Positions 20,026 through 30,800 of a stretch of 64,000 nucleotides of DNA are shown piece by piece. The stretch comes from an uncultured Planctomycetota bacterium (GTDB taxonomy: Bacteria > Planctomycetota > Planctomycetia > Gemmatales > Gemmataceae): assembly GCA_963849325.1 (NCBI GenBank), contig CAWKHF010000007.1:512001-576000 (forward strand), read 5' to 3'. The notes below the pieces were generated by a model, which ran no database searches, was not told the DNA's origin, and worked only from the letters and a program-made list of their open reading frames with translations. The position numbers and the translations under genes are program-made. The stretch's first letter is position 1. Every line of letters begins with the position of its first letter.

Positions 20026-21205
20026 ATGGCCGACGCCTTTCTCCTCTCCGCGGCCCGAACCCCCATTGGCAAATATCTCGGCTCCCTGGCGGACGTGCCG
20101 GCCCCACAGCTCGGGTCCGTGGCCATCGCCGAGGCACTGCGCCGCGCTCGATGTGCCTCCCGACCGAGTCGAGGAAGTGATCCTCGGCAACGTCATCCAG
20201 GCGGGCGTCGGCCAGAACCCGGCGCGGCAGGCGGCGCTCAAGGCCGGACTGCCCGACTCCATCGCCGCCTTCACGGTCAACAAGGTGTGCGGTTCGGGAC
20301 TCAAGGCGGTCATGCTGGCGGCGCAGGCCGTCCGCGCCGGCGACGCCGAGCTGATCGTCGCCGGCGGCATCGAGAGCATGAGCCGGGCGCCGTACCTTCT
20401 CTTCGGCGCCCGCGCCGGCTGGAAGTACGGCGACCAGAAGGCGGTCGATGCCATGATCCACGACGGTCTGTGGTGCGCCTTCGAGGGCTGGCACATGGGC
20501 GAGGCCGCCGAGTACATCGCAGCGAAATGCGGCGTGTCGCGCGGCGAGCAGGACCGTTTCTCGGCGCAGAGCCAGCGGCGAGCCGTGGCGGCGTGGGAGA
20601 AGGGAGCGTTCCACGCCGAGGTCGTCCCCGTCACGGTCGGCACCGGGGCGAAGGCGAAGGTCGTATCGCGCGACGAAGGCATGCGGCCGGAGACGACGGT
20701 GGAGACGTTGGCGAAGCTGAAACCGGCCTTCCGCGAGGGTGGCACGGTCACGGCCGGCAACGCCTCGACGCTCAGCGACGGCGGCGCGGCCGTCGTCGTT
20801 GGCTCGGCCCGCGCGGCCGAGCGCCTGGGCACCAAACCGTTGGCCCGTGTCGTCGCCTACTCCACAAGCGGCGTGGCCCCGAAGGACATCTTCCTCGCTC
20901 CGGTATTGGCCGTGCGCCAGGTGTTGGACAAGGCCAATCTGCAGATGAAGGACATTGACCTGTTCGAGCTGAACGAGGCGTTCGCGGCCCAGATGCTGGC
21001 GTGCGGCCAGGAGCTGAAGCTGGACGAGGAGAGAGTCAACGTCCACGGCGGGGCCATCGCGCTGGGACATCCCATCGGGGCGTCGGGAGCGCGGGTGCTG
21101 GTGACGCTGCTGTATGCTCTCGAACAGCGCGGGCTGAAGCGCGGGCTGGCGTCGCTGTGCCTGGGCGGCGGCAACGCCGTGGCGATGGTGGTGGAACGGG
21201 TGTAA
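20026..21205 (+). CDS. Acetyl-CoA acetyltransferase (thiolase) (frameshift near 20150)
   Basis: [25 protein letters not shown]. Confidence 0.93.
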
Positions 21206-21225
21206 GCCAGGAGGGGCTCTTTCGT

Positions 21226-21900
21226 ATGAGTACCATCGTAATTGCAGACCAGGTTCGTATCCCTTCCTGGGTGAATGACCTGGAGTCGTTCCGTCGCTGG
21301 GCTCGCTCGGACGATTATCCCGAACGAGGGTGGGTGTCCTTCCTCGACGGCGAAATTTGGGTGGATACGAGCATGGAGCAACTATTTACCCATAATCAGG
21401 TGAAGACGGAGTTCACCGTCGTGCTGGGGAGCCTAATGAAACGGGAAGAGTTGGGCTACTACTTCTCTGATCGAGTGCTCCTGAGCAATGAGCAGGCGAA
21501 CCTCTCGACGGAGCCGGACGGCACGTTTTGCTCGTTCGCCGCTCTCGAGGCCAAGCGCATCCGATTGCTGGAAGGAGTAGAGCAAGGGTATGTGGAGATC
21601 GAAGGGGCGCCGGACATGGTGTTGGAGGTGGTTAGTGCCTATTCGGTTCGTAAGGACACGAAAATCCTTCGCCATCTCTACGGACGCGCCGGCATCCCCG
21701 AATACTGGCTCGTCGATGCCCGAAAATCTTCTTTGCAATTCGACATCCTGCGCTGGACGGAGCGCGGCTACTTGGCCGGCCGGCGCCGGCACGGTTGGTT
21801 GAAATCGAAGGTGTTCGGCCGATCCTTCCTGCTGGAAACCAAGCCGGATCGGCTGGGGCATCCGCAGTTCTTCCTGCGCATGGCAGGCGCCGAACCGTAG
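21226..21900 (+). CDS. Uma2 family endonuclease-like protein
   Basis: EPDG, PDMVLEVVS, GIPEYWLVD. Confidence 0.85.
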   Translation: MSTIVIADQVRIPSWVNDLESFRRWARSDDYPERGWVSFLDGEIWVDTSMEQLFTHNQVKTEFTVVLGSLMKREELGYYFSDRVLLSNEQANLSTEPDGTFCSFAALEAKRIRLLEGVEQGYVEIEGAPDMVLEVVSAYSVRKDTKILRHLYGRAGIPEYWLVDARKSSLQFDILRWTERGYLAGRRRHGWLKSKVFGRSFLLETKPDRLGHPQFFLRMAGAEP

Positions 21901-21975: not shown

Positions 21976-23628
<1,653 letters not shown>

Positions 23629-23651
23629 AATCCAAAGTGAGGAGAAACGAA

Positions 23652-24242
23652 ATGGCCACAGTGACAGCCGAACCTCTGAGCGCGACCGCCGTTGAGCGAG
23701 CCTTGATGACGGCGGAGGAATTTCTGCGCCTTCCTAATGACGGTAGGCCGAGGGAATTAGTGCGAGGGAGAGTAATTTACATGAACGTGCCGACGCCGCG
23801 ACATGGGCAGATATGCGGTCAAGTCTATTACCTGTTGCGGCACTTCTTGGAAGACCATTCCGTGGGGCACGTTGTCTGCAATGATTCGGGAGTGCGTACC
23901 GAACGCGGCCCAGACACCGTGAGAGGAGCGGATGTCGCCTTCTACAGTTACCAGCGCGTACCCCCCGGCCTCTTCCCTCAAGGATACTTGCCCGTCGTGC
24001 CCGAACTGGTCTTCGAGGTCCGCTCGTCGGGTGACCGTTGGGGGCGGATCTGGACCAAGGTTGGCGAGTATCTGGAAGCAGGGGTGACGGTCGTGTGCGT
24101 CCTCGATCAGATCCGGGAAAGATGTCATGTCTTTCGTCCCGATGATTCCGGTGAAATCTTCTCGGCCGAGCAGGAATTGACTCTCCCGGACGTTCTGCCT
24201 GAATTTCAGATTGTCGTGCGGCGATTCTTCGAGTATCCCTGA
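23652..24242 (+). CDS. Uma2 family endonuclease-like protein
   Basis: ELVRG, RGADVAF, PELVFEVRS, YLEAGV, DVLPEF. Confidence 0.88.
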   Translation: MATVTAEPLSATAVERALMTAEEFLRLPNDGRPRELVRGRVIYMNVPTPRHGQICGQVYYLLRHFLEDHSVGHVVCNDSGVRTERGPDTVRGADVAFYSYQRVPPGLFPQGYLPVVPELVFEVRSSGDRWGRIWTKVGEYLEAGVTVVCVLDQIRERCHVFRPDDSGEIFSAEQELTLPDVLPEFQIVVRRFFEYP

Positions 24243-24662: not shown

Positions 24663-25590
24663 GACGCTCCTGGAACGCTTTCGCCGCCGCGACCGCCTGG
24701 CCCTGGCTCGGCTCCTCAGTCTGGCGGCGCGGGGCGAGCAGGTCGAAGACATTCTGACCGGCGTAGGAGAACCCGCGCGGCCGGCCCGCGTGGTCGCCGT
24801 CACCGGCAGCGGCGGCGTCGGCAAGAGCACCCTGATCGGCAAGATGATTGACGAAGTGCGACGCCAGGGGGCGAGCGTGGCCGTGCTCGCTTGCGATCCG
24901 CAAAGTCCGCTGAGCGGCGGCGCGCTGCTCGGCGATCGCTTCCGCATGCCGGCGCGGCCCGACGACGACGGCGTCTTCATCCGCAGTCTGGCCGCCGCCG
25001 GAGGACACGGCGCCCTGGCCGAGCACCTCGCCGTCCTCGTCCGTCTGCTGGAAGCGTTCGGCTTCGACGTGGTACTGATCGAGACCGTCGGCGCGGGGCA
25101 GGGCGATACGGTCGTGCGCGAGTTGGTCGATGTCCTCGTGCTGCTGCTCCAGCCGGAGACTGGCGACGATTTGCAGTGGGAGAAGGCCGGACTGCTGGAG
25201 GTGGCCGACGTCCTTGTCATCCACAAGGCGGACCTGCCCGGCGCCGAGCGCGTCGAGGCGCAGGTGCTGGCGACGCTCGCCCTCGGCACGGCGGCCGCCG
25301 CGCCGGTGCTGCGCATCAGCTCGCGCACCGGGAGCGGACTTGCCGAGCTGTGGCGGACGATCGCCGCGCGGCCGCTGCGCCGCGGCCGACAGAGGAGCGG
25401 CCGCGACCTGCTCCGACTCGCTCAACAGACGTTGGCCGCGCGCTTCGCCGCGGCCGAGGGCGCCGATCGACCGGAGTTACGGCAACTACTGAAACGCTGG
25501 CAGCGCGGTGACATCCCTACCGCCCAGGCCGCCTCGTCTCTTCTCGACCTGCTCCGCGAAGCCACGACTCCCGCCGAACCGCGCCGTTAA
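24655..25590 (+). CDS. meaB: MeaB/ArgK-like G-protein chaperone
   Basis: GSGGVGKS, GGALLGDRFRM, IETVGAGQ, HKAD. Confidence 0.9.
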   Translation: MLETLLERFRRRDRLALARLLSLAARGEQVEDILTGVGEPARPARVVAVTGSGGVGKSTLIGKMIDEVRRQGASVAVLACDPQSPLSGGALLGDRFRMPARPDDDGVFIRSLAAAGGHGALAEHLAVLVRLLEAFGFDVVLIETVGAGQGDTVVRELVDVLVLLLQPETGDDLQWEKAGLLEVADVLVIHKADLPGAERVEAQVLATLALGTAAAAPVLRISSRTGSGLAELWRTIAARPLRRGRQRSGRDLLRLAQQTLAARFAAAEGADRPELRQLLKRWQRGDIPTAQAASSLLDLLREATTPAEPRR

Positions 25591-26114: not shown

Positions 26115-26199
26115 GACAGCACCTCGCCCAAGGTCGATAGGATGGCCGCGAACCAGACCGACCTCCTGTCCCTACGATTGTCGCCCGCGGCATCCGCAT

Positions 26200-26228
26200 G
26201 GCCGTTCTGCTGCAGCGACGGGTTCGGC
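26200..26228 (-). other. Truncated attC site (R'' and L'' half only)
   Basis: Minus strand GCCGAAC-CCGTC-GCTGCAGCAGAACGGCC, 6 bp after the PIN gene stop; matches the R''/L'' arm of the reconstituted attC; no partner arm found. Confidence 0.65.
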
Positions 26229-26234
26229 AGCCTG

Positions 26235-26594
26235 TCAGAGCGCACTGGGCCGGCGGATGCGGATCGAGCCCGGCGCGATCACGCAGAAGGCTCCGGCCAA
26301 CTCGGCCGCATGGTCCCGAAACAGCTGGGACACGGCCTCCGCCTTCGCTGAGGGAGACAGCCCCGCCAACCGGGTGAGCACGACGCCGCCGTGGATGCGG
26401 CCGAGGCGGTACACTAACTCGCCAAAGTCCTTGTCCGCGGTCACGAGCAGGGCCGACCGCGCGTTGGCCTCGCCGAGCACTTGATCGTCCGTGATGCTCG
26501 GCGCCAGTTCGGCGACGTACACCGTGGCATGGCCATCGGCGCGCAAGCGCTCCACCACCTCCCGCTCAACACTCTCGTCGGCCAGTAAGTTCAT
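26235..26594 (-). CDS. DUF5615 PIN-like toxin
   Basis: LLADES, ITDDQVL, LVTADKDFGEL. Confidence 0.9.
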   Translation of the reverse strand: MNLLADESVEREVVERLRADGHATVYVAELAPSITDDQVLGEANARSALLVTADKDFGELVYRLGRIHGGVVLTRLAGLSPSAKAEAVSQLFRDHAAELAGAFCVIAPGSIRIRRPSAL

Positions 26595-26827
26595 ACCGGC
26601 TGCGGGCTCAAGGGGTAGACTGTGTCAGCCCGCAACGCCTGGGCGGCAAAGGCGAAGGCGGCCAGCACGGCCGGCCGGGTCAGCCGGGGGTGAGCAGCGA
26701 GGATCTGTTCGATAGGCTCGCCGGCAGCCACCTTTTCCAAGATCAACTCCACCGTCACACGGGTTCCGGCGACCACCGGTTTACCCATCATGACGGCGGG
26801 ATCGGAGACAATCAATGGTTCGCTCAT
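26591..26827 (-). CDS. DUF433 antitoxin
   Basis: SDPAVMMGKPVVAGTRVTVELIL; ATGA overlap with the toxin gene. Confidence 0.92.
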   Translation of the reverse strand: MSEPLIVSDPAVMMGKPVVAGTRVTVELILEKVAAGEPIEQILAAHPRLTRPAVLAAFAFAAQALRADTVYPLSPQPV

Positions 26828-26996
26828 CGGGGCACCTCCGACCGCCAGTCTACAGCAACCGACGAGCCAAGAGCAAGCGCGGGCCGCCGAACGACACAGC
26901 TCAGATGGGGATGATGCCGGGTTGCTCCCACCGACGACAAGCCGGCGGTATTATGGAGTAACCCAGTAAAAGCCACCCCATCTGGAGCAACCCGAC

Positions 26997-28010
26997 ATGT
27001 CCACCACTCTACCACTGTTCGTCGGACTGGACTACTCCCAACACGCCGTCCAACTGTGCGTCTTGGACCCCACGGGTCAGGTCTTGTGTAACCGCGCCGT
27101 GCCGGACTCCGCCGACGCCATCGATCAGGCCGTCCGGCGATTCGGTGCCGTCCGCGGCGCCGCCCTGGAAGCCTGCACCGGAGCCGCCAACCTCGCCGAA
27201 GAACTCGCCGACCGCTACGCCTGGCCCGTCCACCTCGCCCACCCCGGATTCGTCAGCCGCATGAAACAGTCGCCCGACAAAACCGACTTCTCCGACGCCC
27301 GCGTCCTGGCCGACCTCGAACGGGTCGGCTACCTACCCCGCGTCTGGATTGCACCCCAGCAGCTCCGTGAACTCCGTACCCTGGTCCGCGACCGCCAACA
27401 ACTGGCCGCCCAGCGACGCAACCTCAAGCTCCAGATCGGTGCCCTGCTACGGGAACACCGCCTACGCTGTAGCCACAACCGCTGGACGCGGGCCTGGCAC
27501 GCCTGGTTGGAGCATCAAGCTCAACTGCCCGAACAAGCACGCTGGGTCATGCAACAACGCCTGCGTCGGCTGGCCTGGATCGTCCAGGAGATCCGCACCG
27601 TCGAAGAACGTCTCGAACAAGTCACCGCTGTGGACGGCACCGTAACTTGGCTGCGGACGATCAAGGGCATTGGTCCGGTCACCGCCTGGACGTTGCGGGC
27701 CGAGATCGGTCGCTTCGACCGTTTCCGAACCGGCAAGCAGTTGGCGCGGTACTGCGGCCTGACGCCGTGCAACCGCTCCTCGGGCGTGCGTGAGGCCGAC
27801 GCCGGTTTGATCCGGGCGGCCAATCCCGAACTGCGTCGCGTGCTCATCGAGGCGGCCTGGCTGTTGGCTCGTCTGCAGCCGCGTTGGCGGCAACTGGCCG
27901 AGCGTCTGAAGGCACGGGGCAAACCGAGTACGGTGGTGATAGCGGCCGTGGCCAACCGCTTCGTGCGTTGGTTGTACCACGAAGGAGTCCGCCAACAGGC
28001 GGCGGCCTGA
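26997..28010 (+). CDS. IS110-family DEDD recombinase/transposase
   Basis: GLD, ALE, KTDFSDA (DEDD); KGIGPVTA, YCGLTPCNRSSG (catalytic Ser region). Confidence 0.95.
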   Translation: MSTTLPLFVGLDYSQHAVQLCVLDPTGQVLCNRAVPDSADAIDQAVRRFGAVRGAALEACTGAANLAEELADRYAWPVHLAHPGFVSRMKQSPDKTDFSDARVLADLERVGYLPRVWIAPQQLRELRTLVRDRQQLAAQRRNLKLQIGALLREHRLRCSHNRWTRAWHAWLEHQAQLPEQARWVMQQRLRRLAWIVQEIRTVEERLEQVTAVDGTVTWLRTIKGIGPVTAWTLRAEIGRFDRFRTGKQLARYCGLTPCNRSSGVREADAGLIRAANPELRRVLIEAAWLLARLQPRWRQLAERLKARGKPSTVVIAAVANRFVRWLYHEGVRQQAAA

Positions 28011-28039
28011 CGGATAGTGACAAGGCGTTGTCATTGTCG

Positions 28040-28200
28040 GGGGAGTTCCTGAGCGGTTGCGGGTGTGCTCGGCCGGCTGCTGGGGTTTAATCCTCGCGCT
28101 CAGATGGGGCAGCCCGCAACCTTTCTTCGCATCCCATTTGGGCAGGGTCTTGAACCCACGCTCGGATAAGAAGCATGGGAGCCCCAACAGCGTCGGCGTC
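28040..28200 (+). ncRNA. Predicted bridge/seekRNA of element 1 (boundaries approximate)
   Basis: Stem GGTTGCGGG/CCCGCAACC enclosing GCCGGCTGCT (reverse complement of right target) and GCTCAG (left target); next loop has donor-like CATCCCAT and AGAAG. Confidence 0.75.
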
Positions 28201-28518
28201 CTGCCGAAGATTTCGCCGCCTCCGTGCGGCGACCAGGGGCGCTCATTGCCGCCCCCTGGACCCCCGGCTAGCCTCTCTCTGTTCCGGGAGGAAGAGAGGA
28301 GACTAACGCCGAGAAAAGGTGATTTTGCTCTTGACGAGTGGCCTGGCATCATAGAAGCAGCCGGCTCACGCGGGAGGAGGCGTGATGTCGCGCGAAACCG
28401 TTAGTCGCGTGGCCGGTCTGCCGCAGCGACTGGATACTCATGAAGGCTCTTGAAGCACACTTGAAGGAGACAGCACTCAGCCGCTGTCTCCTTCACCTGC
28501 TAACAACGAGAGGTCTTC

Positions 28519-29568
28519 ATGCGCTACTTCCAACCTACACCTGACACTCGATTCTATGCCGGTGTCGATCTCCACGCCAGATCCCTCTTTCTTGTTGTCC
28601 TCGACCACACCGGACAGATTCGCTACGCACGCAATCTCCCCGCCGCACCCCAGCCCTTCCGCAAAGCCATCACACCTTTCCGCGATGGACTCGTCGTCGG
28701 CTGCGAGTGCATGCACTGCTGGTACTGGCTGGCCGACGCCTGCCGCGACGACAACATCCCCTTCCGGCTCGGACACGCCTGGGCAATGAAAGCCGTCCAC
28801 GGCAGCAAGACCAAATGCGACCGTAAAGACGCCGAGGCCATCGCCCACCTGCTCAAGGGCGGCAACTTCCCGCTCGCCTATGCCTACCCCAAAGAACGAC
28901 GTGGACTCCGCGACCTGCTCCGCGCACGCCTCCGCCTGGTCCGCCAACGCGCCGAACTCTACGGACACGTCCACACCGCACGACGACAGCTCAACTTGCC
29001 GCCCATCTCCAACGATGTCAAATACAAGTCCAAGCGTGCCAGCGTCCTGGCCGACATCGACGACGACTGCGTCCGTCGCCGCGTCGAGGCCGACCTGTCG
29101 CTGCTGGAGCCGCTCGATACCACCATCCGACGACTGGAGAAGGACATCGAGGTCGCCGCACGACAGCACTATGCCACCGAGATGGCCGTGCTGCAATCGA
29201 CACCCGGCGTCGGCCTCGTCATCGCCCTGACCATCCTTTTGGAGATCGACACCCTCGAACGCTTCGACACCCGCCAACAGTTCTGCTCCTATGCCCGGCT
29301 ATGCGGCGCCCGCCAGGAGTCGGCCGGCAAGAAGGTGGGCACGGGCAACGCCAAGCAGGGCAACGCCTGGCTGAAGTGGGCCTTCTCCGAGGCGGCCGTA
29401 CTCAGCGCCCAGAAGAACGAACGCATCGGCCAGTACCTGGACAAGCTGTCGGGCCGTCTGGGCCAAGCCAAAGCCTTGTCGGCATTGGCCCACAAGCTGG
29501 GACGAGCCTTCTACCACATGCTCCACAAAAAGGAGGTCTTTCAGATCGACCAATTCCTGAGACACTGA
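28519..29568 (+). CDS. IS110-family DEDD recombinase/transposase
   Basis: GVDLH, GCE, KCDRKDA; PGVG, YARLCGARQESAGK. Confidence 0.95.
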   Translation: MRYFQPTPDTRFYAGVDLHARSLFLVVLDHTGQIRYARNLPAAPQPFRKAITPFRDGLVVGCECMHCWYWLADACRDDNIPFRLGHAWAMKAVHGSKTKCDRKDAEAIAHLLKGGNFPLAYAYPKERRGLRDLLRARLRLVRQRAELYGHVHTARRQLNLPPISNDVKYKSKRASVLADIDDDCVRRRVEADLSLLEPLDTTIRRLEKDIEVAARQHYATEMAVLQSTPGVGLVIALTILLEIDTLERFDTRQQFCSYARLCGARQESAGKKVGTGNAKQGNAWLKWAFSEAAVLSAQKNERIGQYLDKLSGRLGQAKALSALAHKLGRAFYHMLHKKEVFQIDQFLRH

Positions 29569-29575
29569 GAAGCCA

Positions 29576-30090
29576 GGGCGCGGCCGGCGAGCCGAAGCCG
29601 AACGGGAGCCGCTACGGGCTAACCCTTACGACGACCCCCACCATCCAGGGAGCATCGACTCCGCAGTGGGGGTCCGGGACCGCCCAGGCATCCAGCCGCT
29701 TTGATGGGACGCCGGCCGCGTCCGTATTATTTCGACCGCGGTGGTCGCAAAAACAGGCCGCGATCCGCCGGTGGGTCGGGGGACCAACGGGATCAGCGTA
29801 ACGCTGTCCCAAGGAATCGGGCTTGGCTTTGAGCCATCCCACGTCCTCCCGACCCCCGCCAGACCGCGACCCGTGATCGCAAGGAGCCATTCGCCCGGAC
29901 GATCCGCCCCAGTCGCCAGCCTGGCCGAACGGGACGCTCCTTTGGGGGAGTGAGCCAGTCGCTTTTTGAATGGCGGCGAAGCTGGGAACGTATGAATATC
30001 GGGACCGGCCAGGGCAGGTTCCCTGGCACAGCCGCCTGGTCCTTCGGGTCTGGGCCGCCGGAGTCCGCATGAGTGTTGGGTGCGGTTCGC
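29576..30090 (+). ncRNA. Predicted long, two-module bridge/seekRNA region of element 2 (boundaries approximate)
   Basis: Two stem-enclosed modules, each with AGCC..GCCGAACGGGA ... CCAGyCGCTTT..GA(A)TGG; donor-matching ATGAATATC and ATGAGTG follow module B. Confidence 0.6.
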
Positions 30091-30169
30091 CTCGGCCGTG
30101 GGCCGAAGGTGTTCCGCGTCCGTCGCTGATATCCAAGCCGGATCGCCGAGGACGATTGCTCACTGCCGC

Positions 30170-30361
30170 TGCAACCTTGTTCGGTCATCCTTCCGGCAAG
30201 AAAAACGCCGGAGATACCCGTTCCCGTGGAAAATATTTTTACTTGACACCAAGAGCCTTATGAGTGCAACCTTGTTCGGTCATCCTTCCGGCAAGAAAAA
30301 CGCCGGAGATACCCGTTCCCGTGGAAAATATTTTTACTTGACACCAAGAGCCTTATGAGTG
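30170..30361 (+). repeat. Exact tandem duplication (period 95 bp) of the right end of element 2
   Basis: TGCAACCTTGTTCGG...TTGACACCAAGAGCCTTATGAGTG at 30170-30266 and 30265-30361. Confidence 0.95.
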
Positions 30362-30473
30362 TTCGGCGTCTGGTGTATTGTCGCTGACTCCCGCCGAACG
30401 ATAACTAAGTTAGTCGCTGGGTGACGAACAATAAATCCTCTCTCGTCCATCCCTTCCGCTTTGCTCTTGGAGC

Positions 30474-30800
30474 TTACTTACGGTAGCCCTGTCTCTTTAA
30501 CTCATCATTTATCAAGCGCCTATTCGCATCTTTACGTTCCCTTTCATTCCTATCCTCCATCCATTTTAACGTCTCTCTCCACTTTTTTTTCTCCTTCTCC
30601 GTCTTCTCCGCCTGTTCTGCTGCTTTCTCCTGCTGACGTTTTTTTGCCGCCTCCTCCCTCTCTTTACTCTCTCGCTCGATTCTCTCCTGTTCTACGGGTT
30701 GATTCAACCATATGCCGATCAAAGCTATCGGCACTATCGTTAATAAAGTAAATACGACCCCTCGACCCCATGGTGTCGGTGAATCACTCGTCTTATTCAT
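30474..30800 (-). CDS. Hypothetical AT-rich protein with one TM segment and a charged coiled coil
   Basis: 108-aa ORF, RBS-like GTAGGT, AT-richer than its neighbours. Confidence 0.55.
   Translation of the reverse strand: MNKTSDSPTPWGRGVVFTLLTIVPIALIGIWLNQPVEQERIERESKEREEAAKKRQQEKAAEQAEKTEKEKKKWRETLKWMEDRNERERKDANRRLINDELKRQGYRK

Follow-up and report, generated by a model that had tools for sequence, protein, structure and literature searches.

Insertion sequences (IS) of the IS1111 group that target attC, the recombination site of integron cassettes, are represented by ISPst6, ISPa21, ISKpn4 and ISPa25, which passages of PMC11187229 and PMC3001079 describe as site- and orientation-specific and as lying antisense to the cassettes. 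According to part of PMC11187229, the seekRNA of this IS1111-attC group is encoded downstream of the transposase gene and matches both target strands. Such elements are believed to shape integrons in that they disrupt the recombination sites of cassettes, through a mechanism that is little known, and a passage of PMC11616780 describes the experimental evidence on the effects of IS1111-group insertions on integrons as limited. The present analysis concerns a window of 64,000 nucleotides (the whole stretch of DNA analysed, G000:C7:512001-576000) from the chromosome of an uncultured soil bacterium (Planctomycetota, family Gemmataceae), in which a single attC site, located between positions 26886 and 30367, is split into three pieces by two IS1111-type elements, termed El1 and El2 below. 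We consider it likely that a real attC was invaded independently by two unrelated guide-directed elements of this type, and that the freezing of the cassette boundary is a by-product of these invasions. The genome assembly (8.16 Mb, 65% G + C, 14 contigs, 84.7% complete) carries the window on a contig of 695 kb.

The three remaining pieces of the site sum to 101 bp and are described here on the plus strand, which is the bottom strand of the attC. In the first piece (26886-26904), which stops at the El1 insertion point, the R' inverse core (26886-26892) is followed by 5 nt of spacer and by the 7 nt that open the L' arm. The remainder of that arm is in the second piece, a core of 76 bp (28358-28433), together with the central stem-loop, an L'' arm carrying two extra bases, and spacer sequence as far as the El2 insertion point. 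The third (30362-30367) supplies the final 6 nt of the R'' inverse core, whose first G is either base 28433 or the last base of El2. The usual attC length range and the canonical bulged bases were taken as the standard for the 101-bp site, and the traits present are the two inverse cores (26886-26892 and 30361-30367), an extra T and an extra C on the plus strand 3' arm, and the length itself. An attC profile was built from 17 uninterrupted sites of this genome, against which intact sites score between 25 and 85.6 bits. When both elements were taken out by script, the rejoined site scored 85.0 bits over the full model, i.e. at the top of the intact range; removal of El1 only gave 78.0 bits and removal of El2 only 64.6 bits, and the 76-bp core alone gave 58 bits as a partial match. 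Against a second profile, made only of nine integrase-adjacent sites from two other genomes (G006 and G016), the rejoined site scored 65.0 bits over its full length. The initial annotation had proposed that removing 26905-28357 and 28434-30361 restores a 101-bp attC, and both profiles bear this out.

Sites of this type adjoin integrase genes in related genomes. In G006 (same genus; contig L019), an intI scoring 427 bits (TIGR02249, cut-off 265) adjoins at least 5 such sites, which are co-oriented and about 550-670 bp apart, with open reading frames (ORFs) on the opposite strand; G016 (L024) has the same arrangement, with an intI scoring 421 bits that is preceded by 3 sites. From the orientation of the G006 array it follows that the plus strand of the window is the attC bottom strand and that the cassettes are read on the minus strand. 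R' was therefore placed at 26886-26892 and R'' at 30361-30367, with which the extra T and C of the plus strand agree. The earlier labelling is kept as far as El1 in L' and El2 in R'' are concerned; its placement of R'' on the left followed the plus strand order and is reversed, as the cassettes read on the minus strand. The antiparallel orientation of both insertions relative to the cassettes, which had also been put forward, was recovered with the orientation given by the G006 integrase array. An integrase above the TIGR02249 cut-off is present in 16 of 61 related genomes. None was found above this cut-off in the assembled genome of the window, 84.7% complete, where the best match reached 85.3 bits. 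With the same-genome profile, 38 sites are matched in this genome at E ≤ 1e-3, a number that rises to 43 at E ≤ 0.01; most are single or paired, and in genome G153 this site type is confined to one short contig. Judged on its sequence, the interrupted palindrome is a genuine integron attC.

Two intI remnants were also observed in the assembly (C11:1306-1451 and C5:71469-71615), which match the G006 integrase at 76% over 34 amino acids and at 43% over amino acids 2-54. The remnant on C5 has on its left an array of three sites (C5:64312, 65028 and 67156), in which an El1 copy is also found; this is the geometry of a decayed integron.

Two plus strand ORFs lie within 26886-30367 and encode the transposases of El1 (26997-28010, 337 amino acids) and El2 (28519-29568, 349 amino acids), which are 27% identical. 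Both proteins were above the Pfam cut-offs for PF01548 and PF02371, matching the N-terminal DEDD (RuvC-like) and C-terminal Transposase_20 domains expected of the IS110 family (72 and 87 bits, respectively, for the DEDD-type IS110-family recombinase of El1), both match the IS621 and ISCro4 structures of the PDB, and the names of their homologues are generic. In the alignments, both transposases retain the acidic and serine motif columns, which are presumably catalytic. The assignment to the IS1111 type, as opposed to IS110, followed the criterion given in part of PMC11187229, namely a longer non-coding region downstream of the transposase gene; the repeats were expected to be subterminal and about 11-13 bp long, with short, asymmetric terminal extensions (7 or 6 bp on the left, 3 bp at the right end). 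A short left end and a longer downstream non-coding region (92 bp upstream and 347 bp downstream of the gene in El1; 85 bp and 698 bp in the native form of El2) are found in both elements, as are subterminal inverted repeats, and there is no target duplication beyond 1-2 shared core bases. On these features El1 and El2 are classified as two intact, different IS110-family elements of the IS1111 type, in line with what had been annotated. A promoter assembled at the circle junction is also expected of the group, and a -35 box lies near the right end of both elements.

El1 (1453 bp, plus strand, 26905-28357, with its left end at 26905-26996) has subterminal inverted repeats of 11 bp with 1 mismatch (26911-26921 and 28342-28352). 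A candidate -35 box (28331-28336) is placed to pair with a -10 box across the circle junction; this junction -10 is weak, yet conserved in a related element, L053. The ends are ambiguous by 2 nt (an AG common to the flank and the element end), and the terminal extensions are 6 + 5, or 8 + 3 if the ambiguous AG is moved, which is an approximate fit to IS1111 lengths. Three further copies in the genome align over bases 1-1453 at 98.3-99.4% (BLAST), which gives four full-length copies with identical ends. All four (4/4) are located in the L' arm of an attC at GCTCAG/CAGCC (the slash marks the insertion point), with identical flanks and antisense to the cassettes; the copy on C12 has lost the distal attC arm.

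The 3' non-coding region of El1 contains a guide block (28055-28121, plus strand), in which a stem formed by 28055-28063 with 28113-28121 encloses two putative guides. Guide 1 (11 nt, 28072-28082) is complementary to the plus strand of the target across the insertion point, and guide 2 (6 nt, 28098-28103) is identical to the left flank of the target; directly behind it come 6 nt (28104-28109) that repeat the start of the element's left end. The 11-nt match of guide 1 was equalled by 16 of 2000 resampled right ends. In L053 (57% protein identity to El1; second copy at L027) the target is not an attC, and both segments are swapped so as to fit both new flanks while the guide scaffold is kept; the attC-matching segments are kept in the El1-type copies L089, L090 and L091. 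The order expected for IS1111 seekRNA segments is top-strand complement first (a passage of PMC11187229), and the El1 segments have this order and overlap at the insertion point. Both elements had been called RNA-guided at the outset; for El1, where both segments covary with both flanks, such guidance is well supported as a prediction. Since its 57%-identical relatives target a non-attC site, El1 looks like a separate retargeting to attC.

A sample of 400 other genomes of the phylum yielded no El1-like transposase (E ≤ 1e-70), and the El1-attC junction was not found in the 251 other genomes of the family; a pattern match in G149 (2 mismatches) was discarded, its context not being an attC. The right end of El1 also includes a conserved two-hairpin motif of about 95 nt (28194-28296, plus strand), in which 6 of 15 predicted pairs show compensatory changes and which has no Rfam match. 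This motif is absent from the 57% relative L053, and it also stands alone in 11 other genomes of the family, with 1-3 copies each and unrelated flanks (loci L028-L036, L038-L040, L054 and L055), the neighbours being IS110 and IS21 genes and also housekeeping genes. At one of these loci (L040, genome G141), an ORF at 845-1586 with an integrase N-terminal SAM-like domain ends inside the motif, with an attC match at 117-206; this ORF may be what is left of an integrase gene cut short at the motif.

El2 occupies 28434-30361 (plus strand, 1928 bp), of which 1833 bp are the native element and 95 bp a second, tandem copy of the right end (30170-30264 and 30265-30359 are identical). The duplication was assigned to the window copy because the second copy of the genome (C12, 99.3%) aligns over 1-1833. 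The element boundaries initially annotated can thus be retained as coordinates for both elements, with the qualification that the ends are ambiguous by 2 nt in El1 and by 1 nt (a G) in El2, and that the native El2 is shorter by the duplicated segment. There is no other target duplication in El2, and the terminal extensions are 6 + 3 if the ambiguous G is assigned to the left end. The inverted repeats are 13-14 bp long with 1 indel (28439-28452 and 30250-30262, the latter found again at 30345-30357), and a -35 box TTGACA is present at 30243-30248 and 30338-30343, so that a junction promoter, TTGACA-17-GATACT, is predicted for the circle. As the duplication covers the inverted repeat and the -35 box, the window copy has two possible right termini, where C12, L057 and L090 have one; the duplication itself may derive from an assembly error.

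Both full-length El2 copies of the genome have the same left end, with flanks ending in CTGG on the left and starting with TTCGGC on the right, and are antisense to the cassettes. In the El2 clade, both junctions are located at this R'' point in the two own copies, in a transposase-less derivative and in L057, L062, L064, L066 and L090, and the Alteromonas and Vibrio plasmid relatives (L087 and L086) have both junctions at the same point. One readable junction at that point was obtained for L058, L059 and L061 (left) and for L083 (right). Each IS thus lies at its own attC position in all four El1 copies and in every resolvable El2 copy, a check that the initial annotation had asked for. The El2 clade is very abundant in metagenomes, with 6930 of 8000 scored proteins at E ≤ 1e-20; the close clade of El1 is smaller.

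A candidate guide for the R'' flank (site B, 29918-29933, plus strand) has a core, 29924-29930, that is complementary to G+TTCGGC; a second identical heptamer (site A) is found at 29597-29603. The site B heptamer, anchored by a conserved hexamer, tracks the right flank from TTCGG to TTAGG (Alteromonas) and TTATG (Vibrio). L058 was excluded from the covariation, as it has an extra insertion of about 190 bp and an aberrant right flank. For El2, the claim of RNA guidance is thus partly supported, by the right-flank segment and not by the left-flank one.

Several El2-type remnants were observed in the same genome. A transposase-less derivative of 370 bp (G000:C5:954502-954868; left 75 bp plus the last ~297 bp) is located at the R'' of another attC; it has no candidate guide region and resembles a non-autonomous miniature element. 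Right-end stubs of 46-48 bp are found at C7:458540-458587 and C12:510833-510878, and a 5'-truncated relative at 86% is found at C12:1417572-1418760; two of these three remnants abut cores of the TTAGG type, and they are footprints of old insertions. In L058 (genome G143), the extra segment of about 190 nt at the right end has terminal inverted repeats of its own and is possibly a miniature element nested in the IS.

The combination of the two insertion positions was then considered in other genomes. A paired pattern (El1 right end, 60-90 nt, El2 left end), which by construction requires both elements, found the metagenome contigs L089 and L090, which have an identical core in common; their El1 and El2 transposases are 91.7% and 86.2% identical to those of the window, from which their central loop and outer flanks differ. 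The El1 of L090 has an internal deletion of about 453 bp in the transposase gene and is still paired. An unpaired pattern (El1 right end and attC arm only) retrieved one contig of the genome collection, L091, from a metagenome-assembled genome, in which an 82%-identical El1 is followed by the 76-bp core and by an element of the El2 clade whose first 58 residues show only 53% identity. Because its partners diverge incongruently (82% for El1 versus 53% for the El2-type element), L091 was considered as an independent event. On the plasmid of Vibrio campbellii ATCC BAA-1116 (L086/L117), an IS1111-type element of 1338 bp (Vib1), with a transposase 39-43% identical to those of the IS4321/IS5075 kind and 23% to that of El1, is inserted 14 nt after the R' core of an attC resembling the Vibrio cholerae repeat (VCR), the intact form of which is seen beside dfrA6 in L118. 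Its right end has a two-segment guide layout like that of El1, and 99 bp past it an El2-clade element (45% identical) is located at the R'' core. The outer left part of this plasmid attC is replaced by an IS4-family transposase gene. Taken at sequence level, the pairing recurs in at least three independent events. Solo copies are found for 3 of the 4 El1 and 1 of the 2 full El2 elements of this genome, and El2-type elements or stubs are located at about 6 of its about 45 attC sites.

In the explanation that we favour, El1 would recognise the L' arm, guide 1 pairing with one strand across the core dinucleotide and the right flank, and the second segment with the other strand of the left flank; El2 would recognise the point at which the spacer meets the R'' inverse core. 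Both would insert without target duplication and in one orientation, antisense to the cassettes, using RNAs that they presumably produce. Both elements have intact genes, and each is taken to move on its own, because near-identical solo copies are present in other attC sites. Now that 1.45 and 1.93 kb separate its three pieces, the site would very probably no longer fold into the hairpin required by the integrase; the split attC is thus very probably not recombinable, and the cassette boundary is frozen. The recurrence of the pairing elsewhere would follow from attC being a shared preferred target and from the abundance of El2-type elements.

A number of observations weigh against independent invasion by two guided elements, or leave it less complete. 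Five of the nine El2-clade loci examined (L060, L065, L069, L072 and L076) gave no convincing ends, and the right flank of L058 is not the expected core. The left-flank matches of El2 (8-9 nt; 29909-29916 and 29955-29963) are not significant on their own, as 365 of 2000 resamples reach 9 nt, and these candidates do not covary in L058, L059, Alteromonas or Vibrio. At L089, the left flank of El1 is coding-like and not attC, and ends in a 5-nt match to the guide; together with the deletion in L090, this points to copies that have exchanged flanks and decayed in place. Among 22 public sequencing runs listed, 20 share part of the stretch (best, 0.15 of its words); the contigs from the four runs examined were short, mostly of relatives, and bridged no junction, and their lack of any empty site or circle junction is uninformative. 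Finally, two of the five El1-in-attC sites found without requiring a partner are paired, which may exceed chance (P about 0.13 at an El2-type occupancy of about 6/45, not significant).

This last proportion bears on a rather unlikely alternative, in which L'- and R''-targeting elements share one attC more often than by chance. Two possible reasons for such a coupling are that an attC once disabled offers a safe and lasting place to land, and that transcription from the upstream element runs through the 76-99-bp core into a promoter-less downstream element. In its favour, four contexts (the window, L089/L090, L091 and the V. campbellii plasmid) share the architecture and the co-orientation, and the incongruent divergence of the partners indicates independent events. 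However, the fixed orientation of each element makes co-orientation inevitable, L089 and L090 were retrieved with a pattern that requires both elements, most El1 and half of the full El2 copies are solo, and 2/5 is not significant at the occupancy given above. In its extended form, this alternative divides the attC between an L'-arm class (El1 and Vib1) and an R''-core class (the El2 clade), which would form non-random pairs across phyla as a stable, co-oriented module, the upstream transcription feeding the downstream element and the doubly disabled attC serving as a permanent refuge that freezes the cassette; we regard this version as similarly doubtful.

The initial annotation had read the locus as an adaptive, reversible double lock, in which scarless insertion and excision of the two elements would switch cassette mobility off and on. 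This reading is very unlikely, although both elements are intact and were recently active, their flanks would rejoin to a top-scoring attC, and the pairing recurs. No intact intI was found in the assembly, so that a lock would have nothing to act against in this genome; the neighbouring attC, which closes a toxin-antitoxin cassette, is degenerate; El2-type stubs and the transposase-less derivative have decayed at attC cores; and the deleted El1 of L090 persists in its pair. Tetu and Holmes reportedly described, in 2008, degenerate footprints of IS at the ends of arrays and a cycle that runs from infection through expansion to extinction, which would fit this genome. No empty site was seen in the public reads, whose short contigs of relatives are uninformative on this point. 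For ISEc11, a member of IS1111, a passage of PMC11187229 reports circle formation after which the rejoined empty target was not detected. The very probable loss of recombination is read here as a consequence of two independent invasions, and not as a demonstrated regulatory device.

An assembly artefact behind the tandem of two elements or the 95-bp duplication is highly improbable: both elements are multi-copy and the duplication is exact, as an artefact would have it, but the independent contigs L089, L090 and L091 keep the order El1-core-El2, and the window belongs to a 695-kb contig of a 14-contig assembly in which a unique 76-bp core links the two elements. Least credible of all is that the palindrome is a repeat of the repetitive extragenic palindromic (REP) kind hit by ordinary REP-targeting IS110 members such as ISPa11 (part of PMC11187229), which the 43 scattered single or paired matches and the lack of intI in the assembly might suggest, since the same repeat forms co-oriented ORF-plus-site arrays beside bona fide intI in G006 and G016 and has inverse cores, bulged arms and variable loops, and since the marine relatives of El2 are located in attC sites of known cassette types (L118 being the dfrA6 cassette site).

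The locus is a small, two-site, integrase-less cassette cluster beside conserved housekeeping genes, with genes for methylmalonyl-CoA mutase, meaB and a CAP-domain protein on its left and an Lhr-type helicase gene on its right. The meaB-CAP pair is kept in 6 of 9 same-genus loci, and neither an attC nor the toxin-antitoxin pair is present there in any of those loci. The downstream cassette (26235-26827, minus strand) encodes, according to Pfam, a DUF433 protein (26591-26827) and a DUF5615/PIN-like protein (26235-26594), a probable toxin-antitoxin pair from its domain content, and is closed by a degenerate half attC (26191-26228, plus strand; 20.6 bits with nhmmer over model positions 64-101). 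A low-G + C ORF (30474-30800, minus strand, 108 amino acids, no family; 46-48% versus about 65% G + C) immediately precedes the split attC in the direction of the cassettes and is probably the cassette to which this attC belongs. A 14-nt repeat (25566-25579 and 30386-30399) was considered as a duplication around an inserted cluster and rejected, given that meaB-CAP is conserved and that chance repeats of this length are expected in 64 kb. Rfam scans gave no family in the window at the gathering threshold, nor in 26800-30500 at E ≤ 1. Two Uma2-family genes (putative restriction endonuclease-like; 21001-21900 and 23622-24242) were also observed on either side of the methylmalonyl-CoA mutase gene.

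These results indicate that at least two unrelated lineages are aimed at different fixed positions of one site of about 100 bp, and that this two-position pattern spans soil Planctomycetota-like genomes and a Vibrio plasmid. El1 and its non-attC relative constitute a clean natural retargeting in which both guides changed, which locates the guides in an uncharacterised IS1111 lineage. The locus offers guide-RNA targets and a concrete system for the question of whether insertions freeze cassette arrays.

As regards described systems, attC-targeting by guided IS1111 elements is already known, and the presence of two unrelated lineages in one attC appears to be new; this novelty is provisional, as it is based on a limited literature search in which no report of the kind was found. 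At E ≤ 1e-30, the El2 clade had no match in Klebsiella plasmids and one, non-integron, in Pseudomonas; the plasmid matches H53 (Pseudomonas) and H69 (Klebsiella) are not in integrons and so provided no reference for the classical group. El1 is at most 33% identical to any plasmid match listed. The IS1111-attC group is described in part of PMC3001079 as inserting near the attC 5' end, which the position of El2 at R'' and its antisense orientation fit; the El2 clade is likened to the ISPst6/ISPa21 group by this published description of position and orientation. El1 is antisense and attC-specific like that group, but is located in the 3' half of the site, in the L' arm. IS4321/IS5075, to which Vib1 is 39-40% identical, have a different target from El1 and El2, which are only distantly related to them. 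The bridge recombinases IS621 and ISCro4 belong to the same protein family and have two guides on opposite strands that overlap at the core dinucleotide, as is proposed here; compared with the descriptions in parts of PMC11208160 and PMC11187229, El1 and El2 would differ in having the guide at the 3' and not the 5' end, long subterminal repeats and a reversed segment order. Group IIC-attC introns also insert in attC antisense to the cassettes (a passage of PMC3001079), but they are retroelements with a ribozyme and a reverse transcriptase, whereas El1 and El2 encode DEDD recombinases.

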